Of a stretch of DNA of 64,000 nucleotides, positions 3,801 through 20,635 are shown piece after piece. Both the position numbers and the translations under genes were made by a program. The notes below the pieces were generated by a model. That model saw nothing but the letters and a program-made list of their open reading frames with translations, was not told the DNA's origin and ran no database searches. Origin of the DNA: Candidatus Krumholzibacteriota bacterium (GTDB lineage: Bacteria; Krumholzibacteriota; Krumholzibacteriia; JAJRXK01); the NCBI GenBank assembly GCA_963727455.1, contig CAVSGG010000009.1:416001-480000 (forward strand). The letters run 5' to 3'. The stretch's first letter is position 1. Each line of letters opens with the position of its first letter.

Positions 3801-4335
3801 TGGCGAAGCTCTGCGGATCGGGCGTCACCAGCAGCCAGTTCGCCCCCGCGTCGGAGGTCTTCCACACGCCTCCGCCGACCGATCCCACGAACCAGGTGTT
3901 CCCCGTGGCGTCCGAGGGATCGACCAGCAGACCACGAGCTCGCCCCGCCACATTGCCCGGCCCCCGCTCCACCCAGGATAGAGGCGTGCTCGCGGCCTTG
4001 GCGCTCGACTTGGCCTTCTCGAGCTCGAGGATGCGGTATCCCTTTTGGTACCCGTCCTCGATCCGGTCGGCAGGAACTTTCATGTCGTGGAGAATCTTCA
4101 GGAAGAGGTCGGGGCGGTCGGTTTCCGGTTCCCCGCGCTCCTCGTTCCGGGCGTCCTCGATCTTGGAATCGAGGTGGAAGGCGGTGGGCGAGCCACTCCC
4201 GAAATGCTGCCGCAGATGAATCAAGCGCGCCAATTGCTCACGATAGTGGCTGGAATCCTCCCGGGGAAGGAAGACAAAGAGAAGTCCAGTGGCCGCGAGA
4301 AGGAGAAGCACCTGAAGTCGTCGAGTCGGTCGCAT
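835..4335 (-). CDS. Secreted BNR/Asp-box beta-propeller protein (VPS10/GH74-like) with C-terminal FlgD-Ig/Por-type secretion domain
   Basis: N-terminal signal/TM; many SxDxGxxW Asp-box repeats; WVERGPGNVAGRAR; C-terminus LDQNYPNPFNPST...WDG...SSGVYLYQL...RKMTLVK. Confidence 0.85.
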   Translation of the reverse strand: MRPTRRLQVLLLLAATGLLFVFLPREDSSHYREQLARLIHLRQHFGSGSPTAFHLDSKIEDARNEERGEPETDRPDLFLKILHDMKVPADRIEDGYQKGYRILELEKAKSSAKAASTPLSWVERGPGNVAGRARGLLVDPSDATGNTWFVGSVGGGVWKTSDAGANWLLVTPDPQSFATSTLAQCESQPDIIYAGTGESFFNIDAMNGNGMLKSVDHGASWAPLASTLDDPEFNNISRILVDPNDPDVLIVAATTGRYKQDYNISSNIFKSTDGGATWTTVFTQPDAGNDVQDLKATPGDFTVLYATVRQGGILKSIDSGDSWSYTNSGITDFAGRFELAISPVNTSRIFAAAQGASGTSQLWISSDAGATWAQTTEMGTEPNWLGAQGWYDNTILCHPTDPDVVYVGGIQLWKITMLDASHRQSTLLAQTGVHVDHHNLVLLPGNLNTPWRLLDANDGGIAVSSDMDTGWSMPILGLNTTQFYGVDKKPGASAYIGGMQDNSTWRSPENPDALTPWVFQIGGDGYETSWNFVDPLKLAGGYQYNGILRSIDGGTTWNAATSGLSDTGSGSAPFITKLGKSNDAPDLLFAVGKSGVWRSDDFAANWSLASMNTSDWVFSSFLDVRVSQANPDVVWAGSHMDVGGSIYLSTNGGLSFAPVPDFLGVTMGQISGLATHPSDDQTAYVLFSFAGRPKILRTQDQGQSWQDITGFASGAPSSNGFPDVAVYDLLVLPDQPTTLWAGTEIGLFESTDDGASWHLADNGLPNVGIWQLTAVEDEVVVATHGLGIWSVKRPSMVAGKTFTPLIEKLYQIPSGELDVETTLRSAYDSTEVMMNGAVATVLPANAAGDRPLVELSVMNSEMANIQLVSHLGASSYSSPVKSLYVYALNPPVFSYATDFNGGNPDFEGSGLNVSLASGFSDEAIQSAHPYADNTTSTSTLTIPIRVAQSDAIMEFDEVVLVEPGDPGTVFGDLAFWDYVIVEGSKDGSTWLPLVDGYDSRSDPDWLNAWNSSQSGNSSLFRHRSLDLLNTFDWGDTILVRFRLFADAGVHGWGWAVDNLSIQVGSPTGVNDAPGRRFVLDQNYPNPFNPSTSIRYVLPRSGKVSLRIYDQRGRLVRTLVDGAEEAGERTVVWDGRSEDGMRVSSGVYLYQLKAGELVEHRKMTLVK

Positions 4336-6334: not shown

Positions 6335-8982
6335 TTATCGGGCGGCCGACCGGTGCATCAACCGCTCCATCTCCGCGGGGACGTTCATCATCAGGTGAAA
6401 CGCTCTCTGCCCTTGGGTATCTCGATTGTACACGATAGCCAAACGCTCACCGCCGGGGTACACGTCATAGTCCTCGACGTAGCCACCGAGTTCTTCGTGC
6501 GAGAGGATTTTCTCTGGTCGGCCCACTCGAAACCGAGGACTGAGGCTCAGCTCGACCCGATACAAAGCCTCACCTTGAGGCCCTGAATAGAAGAGGGCTT
6601 TCCCGTCACTTGCCCAGCGAGCTCCGATCCCCCCGTCGACAGAGACCTGAGTGCGGCCCCCGCCCTCCATTCGTGAGACATAGACCTCGCTCCGGTTGGA
6701 ACTCACGGCACCATACGCCAACCAACGCCCATCCGGAGAGACCTTGGCCCCCGTCTCGTTGAAGGGGGACTGGACGAGCGGGACTCACCTTCTGATCCTC
6801 CAGAGAGAACTTCATGATGTCCATTCCCGTTCCCTTGTCGAAACTTCCGAACAGGAGAGCCTCCCCATCCGGAGTCCAGTCAAAGGCATTCAGGTCCCTC
6901 GCGCTGGGAAAGAGGAGCCGCGGAGTCGCCCCTCCCTGGGCGGCAATCGAATAGAGCTCGAAGGGGCCTCGTCGCATGCTCGCGAAGGTAATGGTCCGTC
7001 CATCCGGCGAGTAAATCGCGCTCTGGTTGGTGCCATCGACGGTGAGCTGCGTTAGAGATTGGCGTACCGAATCCAGTACCCAAACATCGCTCTTACCCGC
7101 CTCCTCGATACAGAGGACCATGTGCCTTCCGTCTGGCGCAATCGAGACCCGATCATAGTCGCGCTCTTCGGGGACGATCGGCTCGACCTTGCCCTCCAGA
7201 TCCGCCCACACCAGGCGCCCATGCGACGCAAAATCGGGCAGGTAGCAGAGATTGGTGCCCCCTACCGTGACGTTCGAAGAACCATCGGTGATACTCACCC
7301 GCACCGGATCGATCAGTGGAACGGGATCCCCCGTGACTTTGGCCCGATCGGGATCGAAGGGCGCGCACATGAGCGTGGCGCCCTGCACATAGAGGAGATA
7401 GCCGGGCTCCATGTACATGGGAGAAACTCCGTTCTCCACCACAACGTGAGCTTCTTTGCTCTTGCGGCTCACCACCTTGATGCGCGCATCGTCCAAGCGC
7501 GTACTCCAGGCCGTGAACAAGACATGGTCGTCGTCGGGAAGAACCCAAGGTTGCCAATGACCCAGCTCCCCCGCGCTGCTGTCGGGATGTGTGAGCGCAA
7601 CGGGAGAACCACCCACGGCCGGGATGGATACGAGTCCCGAGCTGAGGCTCGTGGGGCAGATGATCTGGCCGTCCTTGGTCCACGCGACTCCCGCAGGACC
7701 TCCCACGTCTTTCGAGATGAGCAAGGGCGTGCCACCCTCGACGGAAACGCGCATCAGACGACCATTTTCGCCTTGGCTTCGGAAAGCGACCCAACGGCCA
7801 TCTGGGGAGAAGCAGGGGCTGGTTGCGCCCATTTCGGTGAGTTTGCGCGAGTCCCAAGAATCAAGATTGCGCAGGAAGAGACGCGGTCCCTCCGGAGTTC
7901 TTGCGCTAAAGGCCAGCATCCGCCCATCGCGCGATAGGGCCGGGGCAAGCGAGAGGGGAACGGTATCCACGTTGGGTTTGAGGGCGACCCTCGTCTGCCG
8001 CAAAGACTCCGGTTCTTGATGACCGCTGACCCGGAGCACTGCAAAGCTCAGCAGGGCCCCCACGACGAGACCCAGGCCCAGCCACAGGAGCCGGGACTGA
8101 CGACGGGGACTGGCGATCTGGGGGGCTACCATCATTCTCGAATCGGCAATCACGTCCTCGAGCTCGATGCGCGCATCGCCGATATCGCGCAGACGCCGCT
8201 TCAGGTCCTTTTCCAGACACCGTTCGAGCAGCCGCTTTACGCTCGGTGGTGACATTGGCGGGCAGAAGCTCCCAGGCAGGTGCACGCTCGAGGATCTTCG
8301 CGATGGTGTCCGATACCGTCTCGGCCTGAAACAGTTGGTGCGCCGTCAACATCTCGAAGAGCACGCAACCGAAGGCCCAGATGTCGGCCCGCTTGTCCAC
8401 CATCTTGCCCCTGGCCTGCTCGGGGCTCATGTAGGCCGCGGTGCCCAGGATCACTCCGGCGGTGCTCACGTCGACGATGGTGGGCGAGTGGTCGATGTCG
8501 CTGTCAGTGCTTTCGATCGCCTTGGCCAGACCGAAGTCCAGCACCTTGACCTTGCCGTCGGCCGCGAAGCGGATGTTGGCGGGCTTGAGGTCACGGTGCA
8601 CTACGCCATTCTCGTGCGCTACTTCGAGCGCCTCGGCCACCTGGGCGGCCACGCGCGCTGCCTCGTCGACCGGCATGGGTCCGCGCGCGAGCCGGGTGGA
8701 GAGGTCCTCTCCCTCGACCAATTCCATGGCCAAAAAGTACACGCCTTCGTGCTGGGAAAAATCGTAGAGCGTGGCGATGTGGGGATGATTGAGCGAGGCA
8801 AGGAGGCGCGCCTCTCGTTCGAAACGTGCCACGCGCTCCCGGTCGGCAGCGAACTGCTCGGGGAGGATTTTGACGGCGACAGTGCGTCCCAGGCGTATGT
8901 CGCGCGCGCGATACACCTCGCCCATGCCGCCGACGCCGACCCGCGCTTCGATTTCGTAGTGGCCGAGAGTCTTCCCGATCAT
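6335..8982 (-). CDS. Hanks-type Ser/Thr kinase with TM and TolB/PD40 beta-propellers; two apparent frameshifts (~8248, ~6781)
   Basis: [26 protein letters not shown] in ORF 7906-8982; continues SVKRLLERCLEKD, TM and SPDG repeats in ORF 6606-8285; continues LVQSPFNETGAKVSPDGRWLAY into ORF 6335-6721. Confidence 0.85.
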
Positions 8983-9100
8983 CGTGGATTCCAGTACTTG
9001 TTGCGCATGCGGAGACGTCCCGGCTTTGTGCCGGGACGTCGCTGGGAGAATGACTTGGATGATACCCGGATTCTCTCCGGGGCCAAAGACAAACCCTGGT

Positions 9101-10112
9101 TCAGCTCTTGACCGCGATGGTCACCGCTCCCTCCTTCGGGGCTTCGCTGCGTGCCTGCGTCATGATCTTGAGCCTGATGGGCGAGCCGGCCAAATGCCGC
9201 GCCAGCTGCTCCTGGACCACAGCACCCATGGCCTCGGCAATCTCGTGGCTGCGCGCGAAGACATGGATCTCGATCGGCTCCTTCGCGTTCGCGTACTGGT
9301 TCAACCAGGAGGCGGCCTCCACCAGCCAGGGATCGTCCACCCCCGCCGGCCGCTGCGCCACCTCGGGCCCCATGAGCGACTTCCCCGAGAAGACCAGGCG
9401 GAATGCGTGGTCGGTCGCGAGACGATAGGGAGACACCTGAAATCCCTCACCCACGAAATTGCGCCGATTTCCCGCCTTGTCCTTGGCCGTAAGCACGTAC
9501 GAGTAGACGAGTCCGGGCAGAGCCAGCTCTCCCGAATCGTAGACTCCATTCCAGACGATCTCCTTGGGGAGCGATCCCTTTCCATTGAAGACACGCACCG
9601 TGTCGCCTTTGGAGTCGGCGATGATGAGCTGCCAGCTGGCCACGTCATCGAGCTCGGGGTGAAAGCGTGCCACCGAACCCTCGCGGAATTGCCGCAACCA
9701 GGGATGGCCCAGCGATTGGGCTCGATCCGCAGTGGAGGTGTTCACCAGGGGCGAGAGTAGGTCCACCTCCCGTCGCTGTACGACGTCCAGCGCGCTGCCC
9801 CAGCTCAGACCCTCGATGGCGTAACCGTCGATCTTCAGGTCGAGCTTGCGGACGATCGAATTCGATCTGGATCTTGTCCTCGCCTTCCACGGTGAGGGAA
9901 CGCAAGACCGTGGTCTTCTCGTCTCCCTTCAAAGTCATCGAGTCCGGCGCGGCATTGATCGCGTTCTGCTTCGCGGGATCCGAAGAGGGATCGGAAGTGG
10001 AATTCGCCGCGCTGCGTGCCGTCGCGGAGAGGGGCAAAAGCACGAGCGCCAGGATTCCGCTGGCAGCGGCGATCGCGATTCTTCGCGTCTTGCGGAAGCT
10101 TCGGGGTTTCAT
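9101..10112 (-). CDS. Exported hypothetical protein with FlgD/CTD-like Ig domain and degenerate OmpA-like C-terminus; one apparent frameshift (~9848)
   Basis: ATG 10112 with GAAAGG RBS, signal peptide MKPRSFRKTRRIAIAAASGILALVLLPLSATA; frame switches IEFDRP to KLDLKIDGYAIEGLSWG and joins ORF 9101-9766. Confidence 0.7.
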
Positions 10113-10129
10113 GATCGGCGACCCTTTCA

Positions 10130-11077
10130 CTAGCTGGTCAATCTGAAGTGGATGGTGATGCTGCCCCATTGCTCCTGGTTCGAGCCGGCGGGGAGCGCCT
10201 CGAAACGCCACAGCCGTAGGGCCTGCTGCGCTCTGAGATCGAAGTCTTGATAACCTGAAGTGCGGTGCACCATGACGTTCTTCTTCACGCTGCCGTCGGG
10301 CAACACCACGAAACTCAGCATCACGGTGCCCTCCACGCCCTCCTTCTTCGCCCACTCGGGATAGGCCGGCATGATGTACTTACGGATCGGCCGGTCCGCC
10401 GCCGGTCCGGCCAGGGACGCACCCGAGAGAGTGCGCCGCACCGTGAGGTCGGCGTTTTTGGGGATGATGGCGCTGGGCGCGGTGGCGACCTCGGTCGGCT
10501 TCACGTTTGCGAGCGACGGGGTGCGACTCAAAGTTCGTTCCCTTCGCAACTCGGAAGGAGCCGCGGTCGGCACGCCAGATTCGCGAATGAGTTTCTTCTC
10601 GTCCACGGCGCCCGTCTTGGCAAGCTCGGTTGCGGGGGCCTTGAGCAGCGCGGAACTGTGGGGTGTCTCCACCGCCAGCGTGGGTTTGCTGTCGCGGAGC
10701 GCGGCCAACCGTTCGCTGAGCCGATCGTCGCGCGCGGTGAGGCTCTGCGGCTTCGGTTCGACCTCGGCCTTTTCGTTCTCCACCCGCTCGAAACGAGCCT
10801 GGGTGGTCGGCTGCGGTGAGGGTTTCTCCTTCAGCTTCGGCTTTTCGGTCGCCGCCTGCACCGGCGGCGCCGCCACCTCGACGGGATTCTTGGTTGTTCC
10901 CGAATCTTCCAGCCAGGTGAACTCCGTCAGCGCGGCCGGTGGTGGCGCGATCTTCGGTGCCATGAGCAGAAGCATGATGAGCAGCGCGTGGACGATCAGA
11001 CTGCTGATCCATCCTTTCTGCTTCAGCTCGTGCTCTTCACGAAGCTCCAGAGTTTGCGCGTAGGCGATGGCATTCAT
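10130..11077 (-). CDS. tonB: TonB-family energy transducer
   Basis: TM with SSLIVH (SxxxH), Pro/Lys/Glu-rich linker, C-terminal PAYPEWAKKEGVEGTVMLSFVV...SGYQDFD...WRFEA; start ATG 11077 overlaps the upstream stop (ATGA). Confidence 0.88.
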   Translation of the reverse strand: MNAIAYAQTLELREEHELKQKGWISSLIVHALLIMLLLMAPKIAPPPAALTEFTWLEDSGTTKNPVEVAAPPVQAATEKPKLKEKPSPQPTTQARFERVENEKAEVEPKPQSLTARDDRLSERLAALRDSKPTLAVETPHSSALLKAPATELAKTGAVDEKKLIRESGVPTAAPSELRRERTLSRTPSLANVKPTEVATAPSAIIPKNADLTVRRTLSGASLAGPAADRPIRKYIMPAYPEWAKKEGVEGTVMLSFVVLPDGSVKKNVMVHRTSGYQDFDLRAQQALRLWRFEALPAGSNQEQWGSITIHFRLTS

Positions 11078-11501
11078 GGCTTCTCGCTCCCGCTTTGATT
11101 GGTGGCCACCGCGACGCGACGCGCGCCGGACTTCTTCGACAGCCTTCCATGATGGCCCGAACCTCTCCGTGGGTGGCCCTGGCATCCGCGCGCACGACCA
11201 CGAGCGTCTTGTCCCCATTCGCCGTCATCAGTCGCCTTTGGATGGCTTGCGCGAGTGAGGGGAGGGTCACCATCTGCTCATCGACCGCGAGCTGCCCCTC
11301 GGAGCTGTAGCTCACGCTGATCCGATGTTCGTCCTCGGCTCCGCGCGTGTGGGCCGTGGGCAGTTTGATGTCCAGATCGGCCACCGTGATCATCGGAGCG
11401 GTGACCAAAAGGATGATCACCAACACCAGCGCCACGTCGATGATCGGCGTCACGTTGATCTTGACGAAGCAAGGAAGCTCCTCGAACAGCGGCTTCTTCA
11501 T
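11074..11501 (-). CDS. exbD: ExbD/TolR biopolymer transporter (copy 2); apparent frameshift near 11138
   Basis: INVTPIIDVALVLVII, VVVRAD; canonical ending KKSGARRVAVAT lies in another frame and stops at a TGA overlapping the tonB ATG. Confidence 0.85.
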
Positions 11502-11504
11502 GAT

Positions 11505-11912
11505 CTACTCCTTCACCGCGATCTTCCGAGCTCCACACAACTTCGCCCGGTCCAGAACGTTGACGAAACGACCGTGGCTGACGGCGTCAGCGCACTCCAC
11601 GACCACTTCGCTCTCTCCGGCGTTCGCCAGGAGCGGGGTCAAGATCTCCTCCAGCTGCTGCTGGTCGATGCGCTCGCGATTCACCGTGAGTGCCTCGTCG
11701 CTGAGAATCTTGATCTCCACCCTCTCCTGCTTGGTCTTCTCGGTGGCTTTCCTGCCGCTGGCGGCGGCCTGTCTGAGCGCGATGCTCGACTCGAAGGCCA
11801 GTGGGGTCGCCAGCAGCAGGATCACCACCAGAACCAAGGAGACGTCGATGAGCGGGGTCACGTTGATTTCGTGACTTCCGCCGCCGCCAGGTGAGTATTC
11901 TGACTTGCGCAT
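11505..11912 (-). CDS. exbD: ExbD/TolR biopolymer transporter (copy 1)
   Basis: EINVTPLIDVSLVLVVILL with conserved Asp; HGRFVNVLDRAKLCGARKIAV. Confidence 0.9.
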   Translation of the reverse strand: MRKSEYSPGGGGSHEINVTPLIDVSLVLVVILLLATPLAFESSIALRQAAASGRKATEKTKQERVEIKILSDEALTVNRERIDQQQLEEILTPLLANAGESEVVVECADAVSHGRFVNVLDRAKLCGARKIAVKE

Positions 11913-11924
11913 GGATATCCTCGC

Positions 11925-12639
11925 TTAGGGATGCGTGCTCGCGACCGGTTCTCCGCTAGGCTCGCCGATCACCGAACGAATGCGATCCACCGTCGGATTC
12001 AGGTCCTCAGCCGGCGCTTGATCCTCTGCACCGAGGGAGGCTCTGAGCGAGCGCGTGTGATTCTCCGCGATCGTCAGCATCACCGACATCCGCCGCGAGA
12101 AGTGGTTGTAGAGCAAGACCGCGGGCACCGCGATGATCAGACCGGCAGCGGTCGTCAGCAGTGCCTCGGCCACTCCCGCCGCCACCACCGACGGCGCGGC
12201 CGATCCCACCTGCGCCATGTCGTGGAAGGCCCGCATGATGCCCCAGACCGTTCCGAAGAGACCGATCAGAGGCGCCACCGCGGCCATGCTGCCCAGGACG
12301 GAGAGGTTCTTCTCCAGAGAGGAGCTTCTGGCGGCTCAGAGCGACTTGCAGCCGCTCTTCGAACTCGGCCGGAAGTTCCCTGGACCTCGACAGAACCTGG
12401 GCGGCCACTCTGCCCATGGGGTGATTGCAGTGCTCACACTGCAAGAGAGCTTCCGAGGTCTTCCCCCGACGCAAGCACTCGAGGGCCTTGTGCAGTGTCT
12501 GCTCGGGATCTCCGGAGCGTCGCCGGTAGTAGAGAAACCGTTCTATGGTCACGGCCAGGGTGACGATGCTCAAGACGAGCAGGAGGAGCATGATTGGGCT
12601 TGAGCGTGTGGCTCCCACCCAGTCGAATTCGGCAAACAT
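11925..12639 (-). CDS. exbB: ExbB/TolQ/MotA proton channel; apparent frameshift near 12318
   Basis: ATG 12639 with AAAGGAG RBS; TM1 and IERFLYY, then frame switch to LEKNLSVLGSMAAVAPLIGLFGTVWGIMRAF...GVAEALLTTAAGLIIAVPA. Confidence 0.9.
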
Positions 12640-12676
12640 CGAGCGTTCTCCTTTGCTTTCGGGAAATCCCCGTGAA

Positions 12677-15600
12677 CTAGTGAATGACGGACTTGAGCTC
12701 TTCGACGCGGTTCTGCGCCACCGCGACCAGCTCCGGGTCATCAGCGTTCTGAATCAGGTCTCGATAGGCGGCCACGGCGTTGGTGTAATCCTCGCGGTCC
12801 TCGTAGATGGCGGCACAGCGCGCGATCGCCGACAGACGATAGGAATCCTTGGCATCGCCGGATTTCATCGAGCGCCTGTAAGCGGCGAGAGCCTTGTCCG
12901 TTTCCGTCAGCTTCTCGCGGCATTGCCCGAGTCGGTACAACACCTCGCAAATCGCGTCCTTGCTCACTCCCGCATTCAGCGCGCTCTCGTACTCGCCGGC
13001 CGCCGCGTCCCACTCACCCTGGGACTCGTCGATCTTTCCCAGCTGCAGGGAGACTTCGACGCTGCGCTCGTCCTGCGGGTACAGGCTGCGATAGCGCTGA
13101 AGGCTGGTCTTCGCGTCCGCCAGCTGACCCAGGAGCTGTTGGGCCATGGCCAGATTGAACAACCCGGCTCTCTGCAGTTCCTTGTCGTCGCTCTGATCCA
13201 CCACCGCGGTGAATTTCACGGCGGCTTCCATGTAGTCTTTCTTTTGGAAGAGCTGGAGCCCGAGACGGAACTGGACGGTCGGTCTGAGCTCGCTCTCGGG
13301 GAAGAAGAGCAAGAACTGCTGGTAGGCCTGAATCGAGCGCTCGGTCTCGTTTGCCTTCGCCCAGGCCTCCCCACTCAGGAACTGAGCGCGGTCGACCTCG
13401 TCGTAGCTGGGGAAGCGGCTGACCACTCTGCGGAAGGCCTCGGCTGCTTCTGCGTACTGCTCCTTCTTGTAGAGTCCGCTGGCAATCTGGAATTGCGCAT
13501 CGGCGGCAAAGCTGCTCTCGGGGTACTTCTCGATCAGCTCGGACAAGACCTCGCTGCCCGAATCCTCTTGGCCCAGGCGGTAGAGCGCCAGCTCCATGCC
13601 CCTCTTGGCCTCCTTGGCGCTCATCGTGTGCGGATACTGCGCGATGACGGTGGAATAGCCCTGTAGAGCATCCGCGTCGCGCCCGCGTTGAAGTCGCACT
13701 GGGCCATGCGCAGGAGCCCGGTAGCCCCCGCGCTACTGCTCTCGAAGTTCTCCAGGAGACCCTGGTAACAGCGCTTGGCATCCTCGTAGTGGCCGCTCTG
13801 GAAGTACAGATCGCCCGCGCGGGCCCAGGCCTTCTCCGCGATGGGAGCGCTGGGCTCGCGAGCCACCAGCTCCTCCCATCGATCCACGGCGTCTCCGCTG
13901 CGCCCCAAGCGCTGGTAACAGACACCAGCCTGATAGGTCGCCAGGGCGAACTGCGGAGAATCACCAAAGCGGTGCCGGTAATCCTCGTAGATTTCGGCTG
14001 CTTTCTCGTAGTGCTTCTGGTTGAAGTGTACGTGCGCCATGCGCAGGTAGGCCGAGCGGACCGAGTCGCTGGACTCATCGGGCGAGAAGCGTTGCAGCAT
14101 CTTCTTCTCGGTGGCGATGGCCAGATCGTCCATGCCCTGCTGCGCGAAGGTCCAGGCCAAAAGCTGCGTGGCGGGCAGCGCGATGTCGTGCTCCTTGAAG
14201 ACACCCAGGAGCTTCTGCAGCGAAGCTTGCGCATCCTGGTAGCGGCCCTGTGAAGCCAGAGCATCCGCATCGATGAGAAGTGCATAGCCGCGCCAGCTCG
14301 TTTGGCTTGGAGGCATGGCTTGCAACATCAAATGCGGCGCGCCACTGAGCTGACCCAGATCGCCGGCCTGATGATAGGAGAGCAACAGCAGACACAGCGC
14401 AGCCTCGACCACTTCTTTCTGCTTATCGTCCTTGAAGATGAGGAAACCACCACTCCCTTTTTGTCCCGCATAGCGGTCCAGCACCAATTGGAAGTAGGGC
14501 GCGGCCGCGAGCGGACGATCCATCTCTAAGAGCCCGACACCGGCCAGGTACGCCGCCGGCGGAGCCTCGGCCTCCAGCGGATAACCGCGCACCACGGTTT
14601 CGTAGGCCCCCACCGCTTCGGCCCGGCGCCCCAGAGTCTCGTAGCATCGGCCAATGCGGTACTGCGCGCTGGCCGCCACTTGATGTTCGAAATAATTGCG
14701 CAGGACCAGGTTGTACTGGACGATCGCGCCCTGGGGATCGTCTTGCGCGACACTGATCTCACCCAGGAGGAACTGACCGCGCGCGGCGGCGTCCGCTTTG
14801 GGGAAACGACTGACGAGACCTTTGAGGACCGGAGTCGCCTCCTCGAGACTACCTTCCGCGAATAGCGCGGCCCCCTGCCTCAGGAGCGCTTCCGCCTGCA
14901 ACTCGGGATTCTTGCTCTCCTTGGCGACCGTGGCGAAACCCTCGGCCGCACTGCGATACGCCTTGCCGTTCAGGAAAGAGTTCGCCTTGGCGTACAGACC
15001 CAGGTAACGCAGCGGAGAATCCGGATAGCGCTCATAGACTTCCTGATAGGCTGCCGCGGCGTGCAGCACTTCAGCTTGCTCATCGTAGCAGAGAGCATTC
15101 AAGTAACTCACCGCGGCCGAGTGGGCGGGGGCATTTGCCAGCTCGCTCAGGCATGCCGCGGGATCACCCTGCGCATATTCAATCGTTGCGTGAGCCACGA
15201 CCACCCTCTGCATCCCGCTGGTCCAGGGCGCGATCGACTTCAGCTGGTTCAGCGTCTTCTCCGCCTTGTCCCACTTGGACTGCCTCAACTCGTTCCACGC
15301 TCGAGCGATCCAGGCTTGCGCCAGGAGCGGACTGTGGGGATGCTCCTCTTCCCACTTCTTCCACTGCTTCAAGGCCTCTTCGTTCTGGCCCTCGGCTTCG
15401 AGCGCACGGATGGCGGCGAACTCTGCGTCGTCCACGAAGGGGCCCTTCTTGTCCTCTTTCGCGGCCTTCTCAAAAAGCTCGCGCGCTTTGGCGGGCCGAT
15501 TCAACTCGCCTTCCATTTCCGCAAAGAGGAAAGTGGCAGCCGCCTTTTCAGCGTCATCCAGATCGGATTGGAGAACGCTCTGCAGCGGCTGCTCCAGCGA

Positions 15601-15816
15601 GTTGATCGCTCCTTTGCGGGCGACGCCGGTCAAGGCGCTCGCAAACTCGAACTGAATCCCGAGTCCGGTGAGCGTCTTCGGAGTTTGCGCACTCGCATCC
15701 TTGCTTTGGCTGGAATCGCTGGGATCGTCCTCCGCTCTCGATGTTCCCGGAAGGAGAAACACCAGAAGGACGGCTACGAGCAACTCCGATATGCGCCTTC
15801 GCGCTCTGATCTTCAT
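12677..15816 (-). CDS. Large exported TPR protein (~1050 aa, CpoB/BamD-like repeats); apparent frameshift near 13680
   Basis: Signal peptide MKIRARRRISELLVAVLLVFLLPGTSRA; many TPR pairs with YPxS/FPxS turns; QCDFNAG joins RDADALQGY in ORF 12677-13699. Confidence 0.85.
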
Positions 15817-15839
15817 GCGAACTCTGCTCCTGATTCGCG

Positions 15840-17096
15840 TCAATTGACTTCCACCGGAATTTTGCCCGAAGGACCGGATGTGGAGATCTCCACTGTTTGC
15901 TCCTTGGCGGAGATTTCTACGCCCTCGTCGTCGGTGACCGAGAAGCGATAGCGGTAGCTGCCGTCGGGCAGCGGCATACCGGATTCGTCGGTTCCATCCC
16001 ACAGCACCAGAGCCGGAGGATTACCCTTGCCGCCGAAACGGCGAACCAGTTGATCATCCTTGTCGATGATGTCGAGCGACCACTCGACGGCCTCGCCGCG
16101 GGTGCGGGTCTTAAGGTGGAAGGTAGTGACCGAGTTCTCACCACTGGGCGAGAAGATCTCGGGTCTGGCTTGCGAGGTGGCGTGGAATCCGCCGAAGTCG
16201 TAGACGATACCCACGCGATGCAGGACGTCCAATTCGTTGTCCTGCGCACTGTAATCCAGGCGCATGTTGTGGGACACGCGCACGCTGAGCCCGCCTGCAA
16301 CGCGTTGATCGCGGTACCCGGCTCTCAACGCGAGCACGCGGTGCACCCAGAATTCGGCGCCCGTGGAAACAATCGCCCCCGGTCCCTTTTGCGCTTCAAC
16401 TTGTGCGGTGACTAACGCGCGGCCCTTCATTCCGTTCCACGCCAGACCACCCCGAAAATTCACGGGATAGCTTTCATCGGCTTCCCGGTAGGTTACATTC
16501 GGTCCACCGATGTTGAGAACGCTGGCACCGGCCTTCCACTCTCGGGTGATATCGGCAATGAGTCCCAAGTCCAACCCCACGCCACCACCGTTGAAATCTT
16601 CCAGCGACTCGCGGACCATCTTGAAGTTCGCACCCATGGAGACCTTCTCCGAGACTCTCTTGGCGGCAGTCAGATAGACTCCGAGATTTCCCGCACTGAA
16701 GGTCCCGAGGTGGTCGTTCAGTTCGTTGGTGCGTTCGAAGTCGCCCGAATTGAGGGTCACGAAGCTGATGCCGACGCTCGGGAAGGTTTGACCCGGTAGG
16801 GCGAAACTGAACGCGTTCATGCGCGACTCGCCGAAGAGGGAAACGGTTTCGAATTGCGTCTGGTTTTGCAGCAAGTGACTCAGTCCCGCAGGATTCCACA
16901 AGCTGCCAAGGGCGCCGTCTGCGTTAGCCACGAAGGACCCGCCCATGCCGGCAGTTCGCGCGGTCTGATAGCTGGTGAGCCAGTCCCCGGGTTGCCCGTA
17001 GACCGGATCCTGTGCCCGGACGGCGGAAGTTCCACCCAGAGCGATGAACAGGACACTGATACAGAAAATAGCGGTCGTTGATTTCATGAATTTCAT
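15840..17096 (-). CDS. PorV/PorQ-like outer-membrane beta-barrel fused to a C-terminal FlgD/CTD-like Ig domain
   Basis: Signal peptide; ARTAGMGGSFVA...SLWNPAGL motif of FadL-fold PorV/PorQ-family barrels; amphipathic strands ending HRVGIVYDF; then IFSPSG...WSLDI...WDGTDESG...DGSYRY. Confidence 0.8.
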   Translation of the reverse strand: MKFMKSTTAIFCISVLFIALGGTSAVRAQDPVYGQPGDWLTSYQTARTAGMGGSFVANADGALGSLWNPAGLSHLLQNQTQFETVSLFGESRMNAFSFALPGQTFPSVGISFVTLNSGDFERTNELNDHLGTFSAGNLGVYLTAAKRVSEKVSMGANFKMVRESLEDFNGGGVGLDLGLIADITREWKAGASVLNIGGPNVTYREADESYPVNFRGGLAWNGMKGRALVTAQVEAQKGPGAIVSTGAEFWVHRVLALRAGYRDQRVAGGLSVRVSHNMRLDYSAQDNELDVLHRVGIVYDFGGFHATSQARPEIFSPSGENSVTTFHLKTRTRGEAVEWSLDIIDKDDQLVRRFGGKGNPPALVLWDGTDESGMPLPDGSYRYRFSVTDDEGVEISAKEQTVEISTSGPSGKIPVEVN

Positions 17097-17109
17097 CCTG
17101 CTTCCTCCC

Positions 17110-20100
17110 CTATCGGACCACGCCGACTTTGCGGCGCATCACGTGGAGAGTCTGACCGTTGCCTTCCGCCCGTACTTCGACGATGTATCCACCGCTGGCC
17201 ACGATCTCGCCGTCCCCATTGCGGCCGTCCCACACGACCTCGTTCAGACCGACCGTCCCCCCTTCCCCAGCGGGAAGGAAGTTTTTCTCGAGCACGAGGT
17301 TTCCGCTCAGGGTGTAGATCCGCATGCGCACCGAGGCGTTGTCGGCCAGCTTGTAGGCGATCGTGGTCGGACTCTCGTTGGGGTGGAAGGGATTGGGATA
17401 GTTGGCGATGGTCCCACCAGGCGCGTCGGGATCGACGAGCGCCGTCTCGACCTGCAGATCCTGGCTCAAAGAACCGGAGCTGGCTTGGATGGTGTCCATC
17501 TCGGGTTCACGCGGACTCAGGAAGTCGGCCCTCGCGATGCCAGCGTCATCGGTTTCTGCGTCCAGGGGTGTGAGCGTTCCCATCCCTTGCGTGAGGGTGA
17601 AGACCACTCCTTGCATGGGAACGCCGTTCTCGTATTGGTCGAGGACCCGGGCATATACGGTTGAGTGTTTGTTCCCCTTCAACCATGTGGGATCCGAAAC
17701 CAAGTCGATGTGATCGGGGGTGCCCGGCACCACGCTGATCACATCGGTCGTTGCGGGTTCGTGGCCCAGGTCGTCGGTAGCGGTGATCTGAATGTCCTCC
17801 GCGTAGGTGTAATACATGTCCACCGTTGTCGAACCCTGGAGGATCTGGAACTGCGTGGTACGAAGCTCACCCGCTCCGGGGTCGCCGGAAGAGGCATTTC
17901 GTACGCTGAGGTTCACGCCGGTATTGATCTCCTGAATGACGCTTCCCGCGTCGTTGGTGACCTTGACCGTCAGATGGAAGTTCCCGCCTGCCATCACGTG
18001 CGTGCTGTCGACCTCCGCCTCGAGATGGAAACCGCTCGAGATCGCGCGCACTTGGGTGGTGCTCGTGGGCATGCTGGGTTGCGTCACGTTTGCGACGGTG
18101 ATCTGCTGATAACCGCCCGTGGAAAGACGCATGGAGAGTTCCGCGACGCCATCCTGCATTGCGGTGTCGCCAGGAAGCTCAGCCATGGCGTCCGAAGAAC
18201 TCAGACGAACCACATCGTTCACGCCTTGAACCGGATTCCACCATTGGTCCGTCGCATACACGGTGACGGTGAAGGCGTAGTTGATGGATTGATCAGTCGC
18301 CAAGCCGGTGCGGCCATTCTCGGTTCCCGGTGCCGGAAATTCGCCAGGCGCTAGAATGAGTACTCGAGAGTAGGTTCCCGGCAGCACAAGAACCTGGCTG
18401 GAGGTGTGGGAGGCGATCTGAGAAGAATCGGCGTCACTCGCGCTCACCGTTTGATAGCCCGCCTTGAAGAGAGTCGCGGGCACGGTGGCCTCTCCATTGA
18501 GCAGCGCGACGTTTGCCGGGAAGCTGGCGAAGGGGTCGCTCGAACTCAGAGTCACCGTATCGCTGATCCCCGGAACCCGGTTCCAGTAGGCGTCGACGGC
18601 GCGCACTGTAAGATTGAAGCTGCTCCCCGCGTTTTGATCCTGCGGTGCGCCACTCACCCCGGTTTCGGTTCCGCCCTGTGCAATTTCGCCGGGCAGCCGG
18701 ACCTGGAGTTTCTCGAAGGGACCCGGAAGCACCACGAAGTTCGCGCTCGTTCCCGTGTGGGGCGGCGCAGCATAGTCGGAGCAGGTGAAAGAGACCGCGC
18801 CACCGGCTCCACGGAAGACCATCTTGCCGTTCCACACACCGGCGGTGAAGGTGATGCGATCCGGCGAGATGCTTCCCGGTCCGGTATTCGCGGCCAGATT
18901 GGCTTCACCGAAATAGCCAGGCACCGTGTTGCCAGAACCATCTACCGCGCGGATGTTCACGGTGACCGAGTCCCCTGCCTGCACCGGAGTGGGAAAGGAG
19001 TCCACTGCAAAGCCGGCAATCGCGTTGGGAATCACCGGAATCCCCACCGTGGTCATCCCCGCGATACTGCCGTTGGTCTGGTCCGAAACGCTGAGATTCT
19101 GCGAACCGACCGTTCCCAAAGAGAGAGTGAACTGACGGAAGCCATTGCTCAACGCGCCGCTCACTGGCGTGCTCGCCAGTGGGTCGTTGGAGATAATTCG
19201 TACGGTGTCCCCGCTGGGCAGGGGATTCCAGTAGTCGTCCGTGGCATAGACCTCGACGGTGAAGTCCTGCCCTGCGCCCTGGGTCGCGGCCTCTCCACTG
19301 AGCCCGCTCACGCTTCCCGGCTCCGCGGACTGGCCGGGAACTACGATTTGAACACGCGAGAAATTTCCGGGGTGGACCGAGAACGGATCGCTCGTGCCAT
19401 TGCGGGACGGATCACTGTCCAGAAGAGCGTAGATGTTCACGTTTCCGCGGTTGATGGCCGTCTCATCCGCGCGATACATCGTCACCTGACCCGACCACTG
19501 GCCGTTCACCAGGTCGACCGTGGCCGGCTCGATGCGGCCCTCTCCGTAGCTCGTCAATTCGCGCAAGCGCACCGGGCCGTCGTAGTTGTTCAGTTGCTGA
19601 CCGTTGGTATCCACAGCCCACAACGAGATCGACATCGCTTGTCCGGCGTACTGGTTCTTCTGGTTGATCCGCGCGAACTCGAATCCCTGCAGCAGGACCG
19701 AGCCCACCTGGCTCGAGCTGGCATCGGGAATCGTGGTGTCGGTCAAATCGCTCGCCTGGAAGTCGAATTGTCCGTCGGCGTTGAGCGTGACGGTGAATTG
19801 CAGTTCTCCGTCACTCATCACGGCGCTCGGAGGCAGCGTAGCTGTCTCGTCGCTGCTGGTGATCTGAATCTGACTCGTGATGGAAGTTTGCGTATTCCAC
19901 GAGGAATCGCAGGCCCTGACCAGGATGTTGAAAGGAACACCCACCGTCTGCGTATCGGGCTGACCGGATTTACCATTCACCGTTCCCGGTGCGGGCGTCT
20001 CCCCGGGAAGAAGAACCTGGAGCTGCGTGTAGCTCTGCGCCAAAGCAGAAGAAGTGCTCCACGGTCCGAGGGAAAGTCCTGCCACGATCGACAAGATCGC

Positions 20101-20133
20101 CAGGAGGAACCGTCTTTTGGGAAACTTCGACAC
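17110..20133 (-). CDS. Secreted multi-Ig-domain protein (adhesin-like) with C-terminal FlgD-Ig/secretion CTD
   Basis: GTG 20133 gives signal peptide MSKFPKRRFLLAILSIVAGLSLGPWSTSSALA; internal ~110-aa repeats; invasin/Big_1-like domain; C-terminal NYPNPF...WDGRNGDG...ASGGY...RKVGVVR. Confidence 0.82.
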   Translation of the reverse strand: MSKFPKRRFLLAILSIVAGLSLGPWSTSSALAQSYTQLQVLLPGETPAPGTVNGKSGQPDTQTVGVPFNILVRACDSSWNTQTSITSQIQITSSDETATLPPSAVMSDGELQFTVTLNADGQFDFQASDLTDTTIPDASSSQVGSVLLQGFEFARINQKNQYAGQAMSISLWAVDTNGQQLNNYDGPVRLRELTSYGEGRIEPATVDLVNGQWSGQVTMYRADETAINRGNVNIYALLDSDPSRNGTSDPFSVHPGNFSRVQIVVPGQSAEPGSVSGLSGEAATQGAGQDFTVEVYATDDYWNPLPSGDTVRIISNDPLASTPVSGALSNGFRQFTLSLGTVGSQNLSVSDQTNGSIAGMTTVGIPVIPNAIAGFAVDSFPTPVQAGDSVTVNIRAVDGSGNTVPGYFGEANLAANTGPGSISPDRITFTAGVWNGKMVFRGAGGAVSFTCSDYAAPPHTGTSANFVVLPGPFEKLQVRLPGEIAQGGTETGVSGAPQDQNAGSSFNLTVRAVDAYWNRVPGISDTVTLSSSDPFASFPANVALLNGEATVPATLFKAGYQTVSASDADSSQIASHTSSQVLVLPGTYSRVLILAPGEFPAPGTENGRTGLATDQSINYAFTVTVYATDQWWNPVQGVNDVVRLSSSDAMAELPGDTAMQDGVAELSMRLSTGGYQQITVANVTQPSMPTSTTQVRAISSGFHLEAEVDSTHVMAGGNFHLTVKVTNDAGSVIQEINTGVNLSVRNASSGDPGAGELRTTQFQILQGSTTVDMYYTYAEDIQITATDDLGHEPATTDVISVVPGTPDHIDLVSDPTWLKGNKHSTVYARVLDQYENGVPMQGVVFTLTQGMGTLTPLDAETDDAGIARADFLSPREPEMDTIQASSGSLSQDLQVETALVDPDAPGGTIANYPNPFHPNESPTTIAYKLADNASVRMRIYTLSGNLVLEKNFLPAGEGGTVGLNEVVWDGRNGDGEIVASGGYIVEVRAEGNGQTLHVMRRKVGVVR

Positions 20134-20635
20134 GTCAATCGCCTCTGCTCTGCGCTCTGGACAATCATCCGGAGCTGGGAACGGCCAGGCAGCAAAAGCT
20201 ACTGCAAGCTGGCCGGAGGGATTCTGGATCGCTCGGTGACTAGAAGGTTGCGTGCCATTCCCCAGAGCGTGAAGAAAGGCGGACTCCCGAAGGTGAGTTA
20301 GTGCTGATGAGGGTCGATGGCAGTGCGACTTTCCGGATGACAGTTCATCTTGATTCGTTTCGTACGAGGAGAACGTACTCGATCCCGGATGTGAATGACC
20401 GTTACTCATCGAGGCGGATACCGCGCACGATACATGCAAGCGAGTTGCAAAACGTGCCTTGATTTGCCCGATCTGAAGAACACTGCGGACATGAGGAAAC
20501 GAGGGGAGCCGAGGAATTGCGGGTGACCTGACTCTCTCGGCGTGGCAGACTTCCTACTCTCATCTAGCTTGGGCTTGTCGACGAGCTTCAGAGCTCACTG
20601 GATTTTTCGAGAAACCACGAAGGAGAGAACGGAGC

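Follow-up and report, generated by a model that had tools for sequence, protein, structure and literature searches.

An Eight-Gene Operon of Candidatus Krumholzibacteriota Encodes a Tol/Ton-Type Motor Set Together with a PorV/PorQ-Family Barrel and a Putative Type IX Secretion Cargo

Results

An Operon of Eight Co-Directional Genes

We describe here an operon found in a stretch of 64,000 nucleotides, the window in what follows, from the genome of a Candidatus Krumholzibacteriota bacterium (GenBank assembly GCA_963727455.1, contig CAVSGG010000009.1, positions 416,001 to 480,000 of the forward strand). The source assembly (G000) amounts to 3.46 Mb in 18 contigs, is 88.9% complete with 6.7% contamination, and carries the window on its contig 9. 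Open reading frame (ORF) calls identified eight genes in a row on the minus strand, extending from position 20133 to position 9101, whose products were assigned to families by profile searches with Pfam and NCBIfam. In order of transcription, the genes encode an immunoglobulin (Ig)-repeat protein, an outer-membrane barrel of the PorV/PorQ family, a giant tetratricopeptide repeat (TPR) protein, ExbB, two ExbD proteins (ExbD1 and ExbD2), TonB, and a protein predicted to combine an Ig-like with an OmpA-like domain, referred to below as the last protein (Table 1). The gaps between them measure 13, 23, 37, 12, 3, −4, and 17 nt, the overlap of 4 nt being read from the intact orthologous locus L021. 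These calls bear out the operon, its list of parts, and its gaps as an initial annotation, made from the letters of the sequence, had proposed them; the same searches, together with tblastn of homologous loci, agree with its remark that the operon contains no TonB-dependent receptor, TolB, or Pal.

Table 1. Features of the operon and of the sequence upstream of it
Feature	Position in window	Strand	Basis or remark
Exported Ig-repeat protein, 1007 aa, C-terminal FlgD_ig-type sorting domain; putative type IX secretion cargo	17110..20133	−	Big_1, FlgD_ig
PorV/PorQ-family outer-membrane barrel, 418 aa, N-terminal hatch, C-terminal Ig-like domain	15840..17096	−	NF033709, AF2 model, Foldseek
Exported giant TPR protein, about 1046 aa in intact orthologues	12677..15816	−	TPR_6/TPR_14, TIGR02795
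ExbB/TolQ-family proton channel subunit	11925..12639	−	MotA_ExbB (PF01618)
ExbD/TolR-family subunit 1, 135 aa, conserved transmembrane Asp	11505..11912	−	ExbD (PF02472)
ExbD/TolR-family subunit 2, 141 aa in L021	11074..11501	−	ExbD (PF02472); end coordinate deduced from the overlap of 4 nt with TonB in L021
TonB-like transducer, 315 aa: transmembrane helix with SxxxH, long Pro/Lys/Glu-rich spacer, TonB_C	10130..11077	−	TonB_C (PF03544)
Exported protein, 342 aa in L021: conserved N-terminal segment of beta-strands (residues about 60–100 in L021), Ig-like domain, predicted OmpA_C/MotB-like domain	9101..10112	−	AF2 model, VIA-align
Sigma-54-like −24/−12 element (TGGCAC-N5-CTTC)	20242..20257	−	124 nt upstream of the start of the Ig gene

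A Putative Cargo Protein and Its Neighboring Barrel

The Ig-repeat protein matched the Pfam families Big_1 (47.3 bits) and, above the cut-off, FlgD_ig (37.4 bits, residues 920–991); a sequence search of the PDB with it returned no match. The initial annotation had credited this protein with a C-terminal domain of secretion type, and the FlgD_ig score agrees with that view, as does the behavior of the domain class across the genome. A hidden Markov model (HMM) built from the C-terminal domains of the orthologous Ig proteins matched 66 ORFs in G000. In 61 of the 66 the match lies no farther than 15 aa from the C-terminus, and because of this position we take the domain to be a sorting-type domain in general use in this organism. 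One further protein of the window, a 1166-aa Sortilin/BNR-repeat protein encoded on the minus strand at 835–4335, has a C-terminal FlgD_ig domain of the same class and counts among the genome's putative cargo proteins, which number at least 61. As for the secretion machinery, SprA (TIGR04189), the T9SS (type IX secretion system) translocon protein, scored above its cut-off in 41 of 41 close relatives, and PorU (NF033707) did so in four of five genomes and is in pieces in G001. At G000:C5:368695-373239 a gene for a PorU-type sortase (449 bits) is followed directly by one for a PorV-like barrel, which is a classical attachment pair in a genome from outside the Bacteroidota.

The product of the second gene scored 114 bits with the PorV/PorQ-family model NF033709 of NCBIfam, for which the cut-off is 90, and its C-terminal part matched FlgD_ig of Pfam at 27.1 bits. 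Its N-terminal region is conserved, and a sequence search of the PDB gave no meaningful match. An AlphaFold2 (AF2) model of the barrel, with a mean predicted local distance difference test (pLDDT) score of 83.4, found its best Foldseek matches in 8gl6_F (E 4.3e-11) and 6h3i_F (E 6.2e-10), both from entries whose titles name the SprA translocon and in which chain F is, we presume, PorV. FadL came next (2r89_A, E 1.9e-9), the matches to FadL and TodX spanning E values from 1.9e-9 to 3e-8. With NF033709 above its cut-off and chain F of the SprA complexes ahead of FadL, the barrel deserves the PorV/PorQ-like label that it had been given, and by fold it does not model as a plain FadL.

The barrel ends in an Ig-like domain (residues about 320–405) that is presumably periplasmic. 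This domain shares 35% identity over 74 aa with the Ig domain of the last protein (E 4e-11), and its match to the C-terminal domain of the cargo extends over 18 aa only (E 0.007); the cargo-domain HMM matches neither of the two Ig domains. Judged by these alignments, the Ig domains of the barrel and of the last protein are paralogous, and both are distinct from the C-terminal domain of the cargo. Because the C-terminal domain class is general in the genome, SprA and PorU are present, and the barrel has the fold that it has, it is reasonable to regard the Ig-repeat protein and the barrel as a putative T9SS-type cargo with its carrier barrel.

A Complete Motor Set

ExbB matched MotA_ExbB (PF01618) at 90.5 bits and, when compared with proteins of solved structure, TolQ at 82.6 bits and ExbB at 75.6 bits. 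We placed it in a tree of 43 ExbB/TolQ rows made up of the paralogues of five genomes of the class and the operon orthologues, with no references from outside. The ExbB proteins of the operon and of a related form of it (type 1 and type 2; see below) formed one group with support of 92/89, and a branch supported at 99/94 separated operon ExbB and canonical TolQ, on one side, from all other paralogues on the other. When the three longest rows were left out (40 rows), the split on the TolQ side was kept at 96/91. The tree suggests, as a lead and not as a settled relationship, that operon ExbB groups with canonical TolQ and not with the other ExbB paralogues of the class.

Both ExbD proteins matched PF02472 of Pfam (74.5 bits for ExbD1 and 72.1 bits for ExbD2), and in the PDB ExbD1 scored 45.5 bits with ExbD and 24.4 bits with TolR. 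The motif TPL(I/A)DV of ExbD1 is present in all 16 orthologues, and TPIIDV of ExbD2 in 14 of 16; in two distant type 2 loci the Asp of ExbD2 is replaced by Asn. To go by these residues, the type 2 stator would pair one protonatable subunit (ExbD1, with Asp) with one non-protonatable subunit (ExbD2, with Asn). The TonB protein matched TonB_C (PF03544) at 65.7 bits. Its S26 and H30, which form the SxxxH motif, are invariant in 13 of 13 sequences, and a YP(E/D)WA block is conserved; on NF033768, the model of the AgmX/PglI tail, it reached 24.4 bits, under the cut-off of 40.

By their profile matches, ExbB, the two ExbD proteins, and TonB constitute a complete motor of the 5:2 type with its transducer, and this motor looks more like those of the Tol and Agl systems than like that of the Ton system. 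The Agl/Ton-type motor of the initial annotation stands as far as the ExbB/ExbD/ExbD/TonB set is concerned; its Ton side fits less well, since operon ExbB seems to group with canonical TolQ.

The TPR Protein and the Last Protein

The giant TPR protein contains YbgF-type repeats, which TIGR02795 detected at 140.4 and 108.2 bits on two pieces of the gene, and it also matched TPR_6/TPR_14. The last protein has a weak Pfam match to FlgD_ig (19 bits) and no Cys lipobox, and a sequence search of the PDB with it produced no meaningful match. An AF2 model of its orthologue in L021 had a mean pLDDT of 72.5, with residues about 150–342 at 84–95, and shows an Ig domain like those of FN3 and FlgD followed by a domain resembling OmpA_C and MotB. 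Structural alignment with VIA-align gave Z 10.6 to the wall anchor of a type VI secretion system, 4b62 (rmsd 3.0, 110 aligned), Z 9.9 to MotB (3s0h_B), and Z 8.6 to OmpA (4rha_A); the Ig part was aligned at Z 8.9 with residues 1068–1157 of PorU (6za2_B). Foldseek returned matches at E 2.5e-3 or weaker only, and for this reason the predicted OmpA_C-like fold is called from VIA-align.

Conserved Order and Patchy Distribution

Within the class to which the organism belongs, a full-length orthologue of the barrel (E<1e-40) is present in 23 of 41 close relatives, which represent eight families. Stretches of 17 kb were taken from 20 barrel-bearing relatives, and gene order was compared. All eight genes were matched in order in 15 of these loci; three were distant loci of a second kind, called type 2, with the same order and only one ExbD above threshold, and two ran into the end of a contig. 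A wider view came from a pattern scan across species genomes, based on an alignment of eight barrel sequences. Its reach is relatives at 43% identity or more, and it is silent on distant phyla. The scan yielded 80 public loci, titled Candidatus Krumholzibacteriota, Eisenbacteria, Latescibacterota, and others, which overlap in genomes with the 20 loci of the class. Fifty of the 80 are complete, with the eight genes in order, 28 stop no more than 500 nt from the end of the locus, and two deviate. One complete locus (L113) has the pair of Ig and barrel genes duplicated in tandem before the TPR gene, and another carries one more Ig gene downstream. Of the two deviating loci, one is L065 (see Discussion), and the other, L079, has an interruption past the N-terminal portion of its TPR gene. 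Conservation of the flanking genes stops at the genus.

At a threshold of E≤1e-30 the barrel was found in 135 of 208 genomes of Krumholzibacteriota, corresponding to 86 of 125 high-quality genomes and to 59 of 81 genera. In a second phylum, that of genome G208, the source of the locus L057 titled Candidatus Eisenbacteria, 51 of the 151 genomes sampled have it as well; the count of 51 includes one unpublished genome (G227). We accepted the second phylum on the grounds that none of its match positions or scores coincides with the list for the first.

Because the same gene order recurs across related loci, the arrangement lies far beyond chance, and its persistence in 50 of 80 public loci and 15 of 20 loci of the class disposes of the concern, raised with the initial annotation, that the order might not be conserved. 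The operon is strongly conserved in order, accessory, and intact in nature.

Operons of type 2 are seen at L035, L039, and L122. The last of these (G001:C4:45000-63000) shows that the closest relative has operons of both types; its type 2 copy is fragmented, with the Ig gene in four pieces, the TPR gene in three, and a short barrel. Farther afield, look-alikes from the ESM Atlas lead to a cluster of 660 members that combine PorV/PorQ with FlgD_ig and are commonest in candidate division WOR-3, an observation that we offer as a lead only.

Frame Breaks in This Assembly

Four genes of the operon (those for the TPR protein, ExbB, ExbD2, and the last protein) and the kinase gene downstream of it are split in the window. 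The frameshifts that the initial annotation pointed out are real in this assembly. Compared with L021, the closest relative (78% DNA identity), uncompensated indels lie at about 13681 (TPR), 12318 (ExbB), about 11134–11147 (ExbD2), and 9849 (last gene); one base is missing at the TPR break, and the ExbD2 break has a net gain of two bases. In all other loci the genes are intact single ORFs, of 991–1050 aa for the TPR protein (18 other loci), 207–249 aa for ExbB, and 315–371 aa for the last protein.

Contigs from four public metagenome runs of wetlands and soils (X1, X2, X3, and X5) were aligned to positions 9000–14000 of the window, and every contig that covers a break site has an indel that restores the frame. 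Contigs of X1, X2, and X3 have one base fewer at 9845–9849 in the last gene, two single-base deletions at 11134–11147 in ExbD2, and one base fewer at 12317–12319 in ExbB; contigs of X1, X3, and X5 have one base more at 13681 or 13684 in the TPR gene. Because the public contigs and all other loci have intact frames, the four breaks are most likely errors of the assembly or private to the strain. Decay of the genes into pseudogenes was considered and rejected as unlikely, the orthologues being intact and the metagenome contigs restoring the frame. Several studies of wetlands, soils, and salt marshes have metagenome runs with sequence nearly identical to positions 9000–14000.

Other Envelope Systems of the Same Genomes

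The operon coexists with other systems that serve the envelope. A canonical locus in which TolQ, TolR, a full-length TolB (295–320 bits), and a gene with an OmpA domain stand together is found elsewhere in five of five genomes, and we reject the notion that the operon is the Tol-Pal system of the genome. Receptors with a Plug domain are likewise encoded elsewhere in the five genomes (6, 6, 3, 6, and 8 per genome), and a tblastn search with six TonB-dependent receptors of G000 (E≤1e-6) found a receptor in 0 of 100 homologous loci. With 3–8 receptors elsewhere per genome and none in the 100 loci, the operon is rejected as a classical Ton uptake locus as well. The worry that homologous loci might routinely include a receptor, TolB, or Pal thus came to nothing: no locus has the first, and the other two have a locus of their own.

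A third candidate, that the operon is the general energizer of the T9SS, is also rejected. Because SprA is universal among the relatives (41 of 41) and the operon is present in 23 of 41, the operon is an accessory and not a general T9SS motor. Searches for the motor components known from Bacteroidota, which had no positive control, found GldL in 0 of 10 genomes (the five and five further ones), GldM in 0 of 5 (PF12081 in 0 of 1), and GldN in 0 of 5; GldK gave matches below 100 bits only, against a cut-off of 350.

We also observed a second cluster, here called the core cluster, at G000:C15:62879-74201 on the minus strand (equivalent to 4874–16178 of L124) and again at L123 and L121. Its order is TonB-dependent receptor, a protein of 927 aa whose C-terminal domain is a related one, barrel, GWxTD protein, ExbB, ExbD, ExbD, and TonB. 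The barrel is of the PorV/PorQ family (317 aa, 179 bits), and 40 of the 41 relatives have an orthologue of it in single copy. No paper with the word GWxTD turned up in the searchable literature, subscription journals and supplementary files lying outside the search. PorV-family barrels that adjoin ExbB-type motors are a recurrent theme in this class.

Sequences Flanking the Operon

Upstream of the operon lies a divergent OsmC gene, and in the interval there is a sigma-54-like element (Table 1). An element of the TGGCAC type is found 118–131 nt upstream of the start of the Ig gene in 12 of the 14 loci with sufficient upstream sequence. We call the element on its conserved position only, against a −24/−12 consensus that we take to be that of sigma-54, because the canonical pattern gives no support across the window, where it has 28 matches against 24.95 expected and is therefore not enriched; the −12 half of the element is weak in the window. 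Directly downstream, at 6606–8982 on the minus strand, is a gene for a Ser/Thr kinase fused to PD40 beta-propeller repeats, whose frame is split here and intact in L021. The kinase was considered as a ninth gene of the operon and rejected, as it is conserved within the genus only.

Discussion

We think there is about an even chance that the products of the eight genes make up a single apparatus, accessory and proton-driven, that spans the envelope. The best reading of the locus is that a motor of the Tol/Agl type acts on a surface protein and its carrier barrel, the physical coupling between them being what we infer. The motor genes are co-encoded with a giant TPR protein resembling CpoB and BamD, with the barrel, with the protein predicted to have Ig and OmpA-like domains, and, with one exception, with the Ig-repeat protein as well. 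In such an apparatus the Ig-repeat protein would cross the outer membrane by way of the SprA translocon, and its cognate barrel would hold it on the surface, as happens in the PorU-PorV, PorZ-PorQ, and SprB-SprF pairings of cargo and barrel in the Bacteroidota. The Ig domain of the barrel, if periplasmic as presumed, and the Ig/OmpA-like protein would tie this outer-membrane module to the peptidoglycan, and the TPR protein would be the scaffold. The TonB-like rod would pass the proton-motive force from the Tol-like stator to the outer-membrane module. The output would be mechanical work on the surface protein, which might be moved, tensioned, or released; this would resemble the work of the Agl-Glt and Tol-Pal systems, unlike the gating of a TonB-dependent transporter. 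Adhesion, gliding, and substrate capture are the candidate purposes of such work, and the Ig-repeat protein, which the initial annotation named an adhesin, is a putative one. That annotation had the locus join T9SS-like cargo and shuttle parts to an Agl/Ton-type proton motor. Its parts, their order, and their conservation have held; what must be added is that the operon, being accessory (23 of 41 relatives), is no general energizer of the T9SS.

Several findings weigh against a joint apparatus of this kind. The C-terminal domain of the Ig protein reached 20.7 bits with TIGR04183, slightly under the cut-off of 23, and the protein has no domain that indicates adhesion. The predicted OmpA-like domain of the last protein is not matched by Pfam OmpA at E 0.01. 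Both ExbD proteins are nearer to solved ExbD (45–50 bits) than to TolR (24–27 bits), which conflicts with a Tol-like ExbB, and in a tree with no outside references the long TolQ branch may have drawn operon ExbB to itself as a long-branch artifact. Of the 41 relatives 18 lack the operon, three of these belonging to the same genus, so its function is dispensable. At L065 the seven downstream genes are present with neither an Ig gene nor a sorting-domain gene upstream. No RNA run was among the public runs that match positions 9000–14000 of the window. Finally, contact of the motor with the barrel, the last protein, or the TPR protein is something that the reading supposes, and a co-fold of the barrel, the last protein, and the C-terminal domain of TonB had a score of 0.00, which weighs neither way.

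The best placed of the alternatives, which we nevertheless consider unlikely, is TonB-dependent uptake of a new type, in which the Ig-repeat protein would capture a substrate, the PorV/FadL-like barrel would be the channel, and TonB would open its N-terminal hatch. The set of ExbB, ExbD, and TonB is complete and has a canonical TonB_C domain, the closeness of both ExbD proteins to solved ExbD fits such a role, and the fold of the barrel is one that it has in common with the transporters FadL and TodX (E 1.9e-9 to 3e-8) and includes a conserved N-terminal region. The core cluster, moreover, places a similar barrel beside a TonB-dependent receptor and a Ton set. However, no TonB box was identified, ExbB groups with TolQ and not with the other ExbB paralogues, and neither a predicted OmpA-like wall anchor nor a TPR scaffold of 1046 aa has a role in known Ton uptake. 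PorV-family barrels, furthermore, are known to act as carriers and are not known to be importers.

Next in order, and to our minds improbable, comes a paralogous system for maintaining the envelope in the manner of Tol-Pal, whose motor would mobilize the Ig/OmpA-like protein as an analogue of Pal, with the barrel and the Ig-repeat protein as its anchor in the outer membrane. The presence of a canonical TolQ-TolR-TolB-Pal locus elsewhere in all five genomes speaks against it, as do the lack of TolB in the operon, the lack of a lipoprotein signal on the OmpA-like protein, and the absence of the operon from 73 of the phylum's 208 genomes. It would also leave a secreted Ig-repeat protein of 1000–1650 aa without an explanation. 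What commends it is the grouping of ExbB with TolQ, the TPR repeats of YbgF/CpoB type above the TIGR02795 cut-off, the rod resembling TolA and TonB, and the predicted OmpA_C-like domain of the last protein. In the accessible text of a recent study, the TPR, Ig-like, and OmpA_C modules of PorE are argued to be a compact tether like that of Tol-Pal (Williams-Jones et al. 2025, PMC12204202).

We are more doubtful still that the operon is a dedicated helper of secretion or attachment, a local stand-in for GldLM whose motor would energize the export of one large cargo, or its release from SprA or the barrel. SprA and PorU are present, cargo and barrel are adjacent throughout (with L065 as the exception), and GldL, GldM, and GldN were not found, with GldK below threshold; yet these searches, lacking a positive control, carry the weakness already mentioned. 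More than 60 other proteins with a C-terminal domain of the same class have no such motor adjoining them, and SprA occurs without the operon in 18 of 41 relatives. That the genes have no joint function at all, an ordinary Ton system having come by chance to lie beside genes for surface proteins, is very improbable: each component does come from a common family and no interaction has been demonstrated, but the order of the eight genes recurs in the informative loci of two phyla with varying flanks, the gaps are −4 to 37 nt with a conserved promoter-like element upstream, the genes are present or absent jointly, and other Ton sets and 3–8 TonB-dependent receptors lie elsewhere in the genomes.

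If the coupling of motor to surface protein is taken as the best reading, the operon invites comparison with several known systems. Like the T9SS pairs of the Bacteroidota, it encodes a protein with a putative sorting domain directly upstream of a PorV/PorQ-family barrel in a genome with SprA and PorU. Unlike them, its barrel has an extra Ig domain, presumed periplasmic, and shares an operon with a TolQ/ExbB-ExbD-TonB motor, a giant TPR protein, and a predicted OmpA-like protein; GldL, GldM, and GldN, moreover, went undetected in the genomes that bear it (in the searches without a positive control). With Tol-Pal (TolQ-TolR-TolA-TolB-Pal-CpoB) it has in common a putatively TolQ-like channel, a rod like TolA or TonB, a TPR protein of CpoB type, and a predicted OmpA_C-like fold; it differs in having no TolB or lipoprotein Pal, in having two ExbD-like subunits, and in the addition of a barrel and a secreted Ig protein.

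The Agl-Glt system has a "core complex" that, in the part of the source available, consists of aglR, aglQ, aglS, gltC, gltD, gltE, and gltG and comprises one TolQ-like protein, two TolR-like proteins, a TonB-like protein, and TPR proteins encoded in one operon; its function outside the Myxococcales was not known (Luciano et al. 2011, PMC3169522). Compared with that description, the operon too has one TolQ-like and two TolR-like proteins, a TonB-like transducer, and a large exported TPR protein, a likeness of architecture only. It departs from the description in having a single TPR protein of 1046 aa, a PorV-family barrel, a putative T9SS-type cargo, and a predicted OmpA-like protein. It also has no genes for the cytoplasmic platform, and the AgmX/PglI tail model stayed under its cut-off (24.4 against 40).

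In Fibrobacter succinogenes S85, according to the available portion of the report, the genes FSU_2396 (OmpA), FSU_2397/2398 (TPR), and FSU_2400–2403 (ExbB, ExbD, ExbD, and TonB) are clustered, their products rise on cellulose, and vesicle complexes contained the TPR and OmpA proteins alongside cellulases secreted by the T9SS (Raut et al. 2019, PMC6851124). Compared by description only, this cluster and the operon are alike in bringing together an OmpA-family protein, TPR, ExbB, two ExbD, and TonB in a bacterium from the FCB (Fibrobacteres–Chlorobi–Bacteroidetes) group with a T9SS; the gene order is different, and neither a PorV-like barrel nor an Ig cargo is mentioned in that portion. Clusters of the form TPR-tolQ-tolR-tolR with a transducer carrying a von Willebrand factor A (vWA) domain have also been described (Williams-Jones et al. 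2025, PMC12204202, as far as its text is accessible). The head of the transducer is vWA there, in contrast to TonB_C in the operon.

To judge from the accessible parts of these sources, neither a PorV-family barrel nor a sorting-domain cargo is reported in the Agl-Glt, TPR-vWA, or F. succinogenes clusters, and the word PorV has 0 occurrences in PMC12204202. None of the terms sought for phyla other than the Bacteroidota is present in PMC7323717, and the literature search, with the same bounds as before, found no paper that puts a PorV-type barrel together with ExbB/ExbD/TonB or TolQR in one operon outside the Bacteroidota. The parts of the operon are individually ordinary, and their combination is undescribed in the literature searched; it is best filed among the force-transduction systems of the Tol/Ton/Agl type, with an outer-membrane output of the T9SS type.

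To our knowledge, proton-driven 5:2 motors (Ton, Tol, Mot, GldLM, and Agl) are the only known way in which Gram-negative bacteria do work at the outer membrane, and each output module known for these motors has revealed a new part of cell biology. In the present case a complete motor of the Tol/Ton type is co-encoded with an output new to such motors, a PorV-family barrel and a putative T9SS-type surface protein, in an arrangement conserved across two uncultured phyla that are common in soils and wetlands. A more sweeping proposal, which we hold to be rather unlikely, is that phyla of the Krumholzibacteriota/Eisenbacteria kind run T9SS-type secretion without GldLM/GldKN and use 5:2 motors of the Tol/Ton type, wired to PorV-family barrels in the core cluster and in this operon, as the source of energy for surface proteins. 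The operon would then be a self-contained, motor-driven adhesin device and a third independent solution beside GldLM-SprB and Agl-Glt. If the coupling is true, the eight proteins would offer a compact system in which to study the transmission of force to a surface protein and a candidate energizer of T9SS-like secretion or of adhesin movement where GldLM is undetectable, and they would connect the lineages of envelope machines represented by Tol-Pal, Agl-Glt, and the T9SS.

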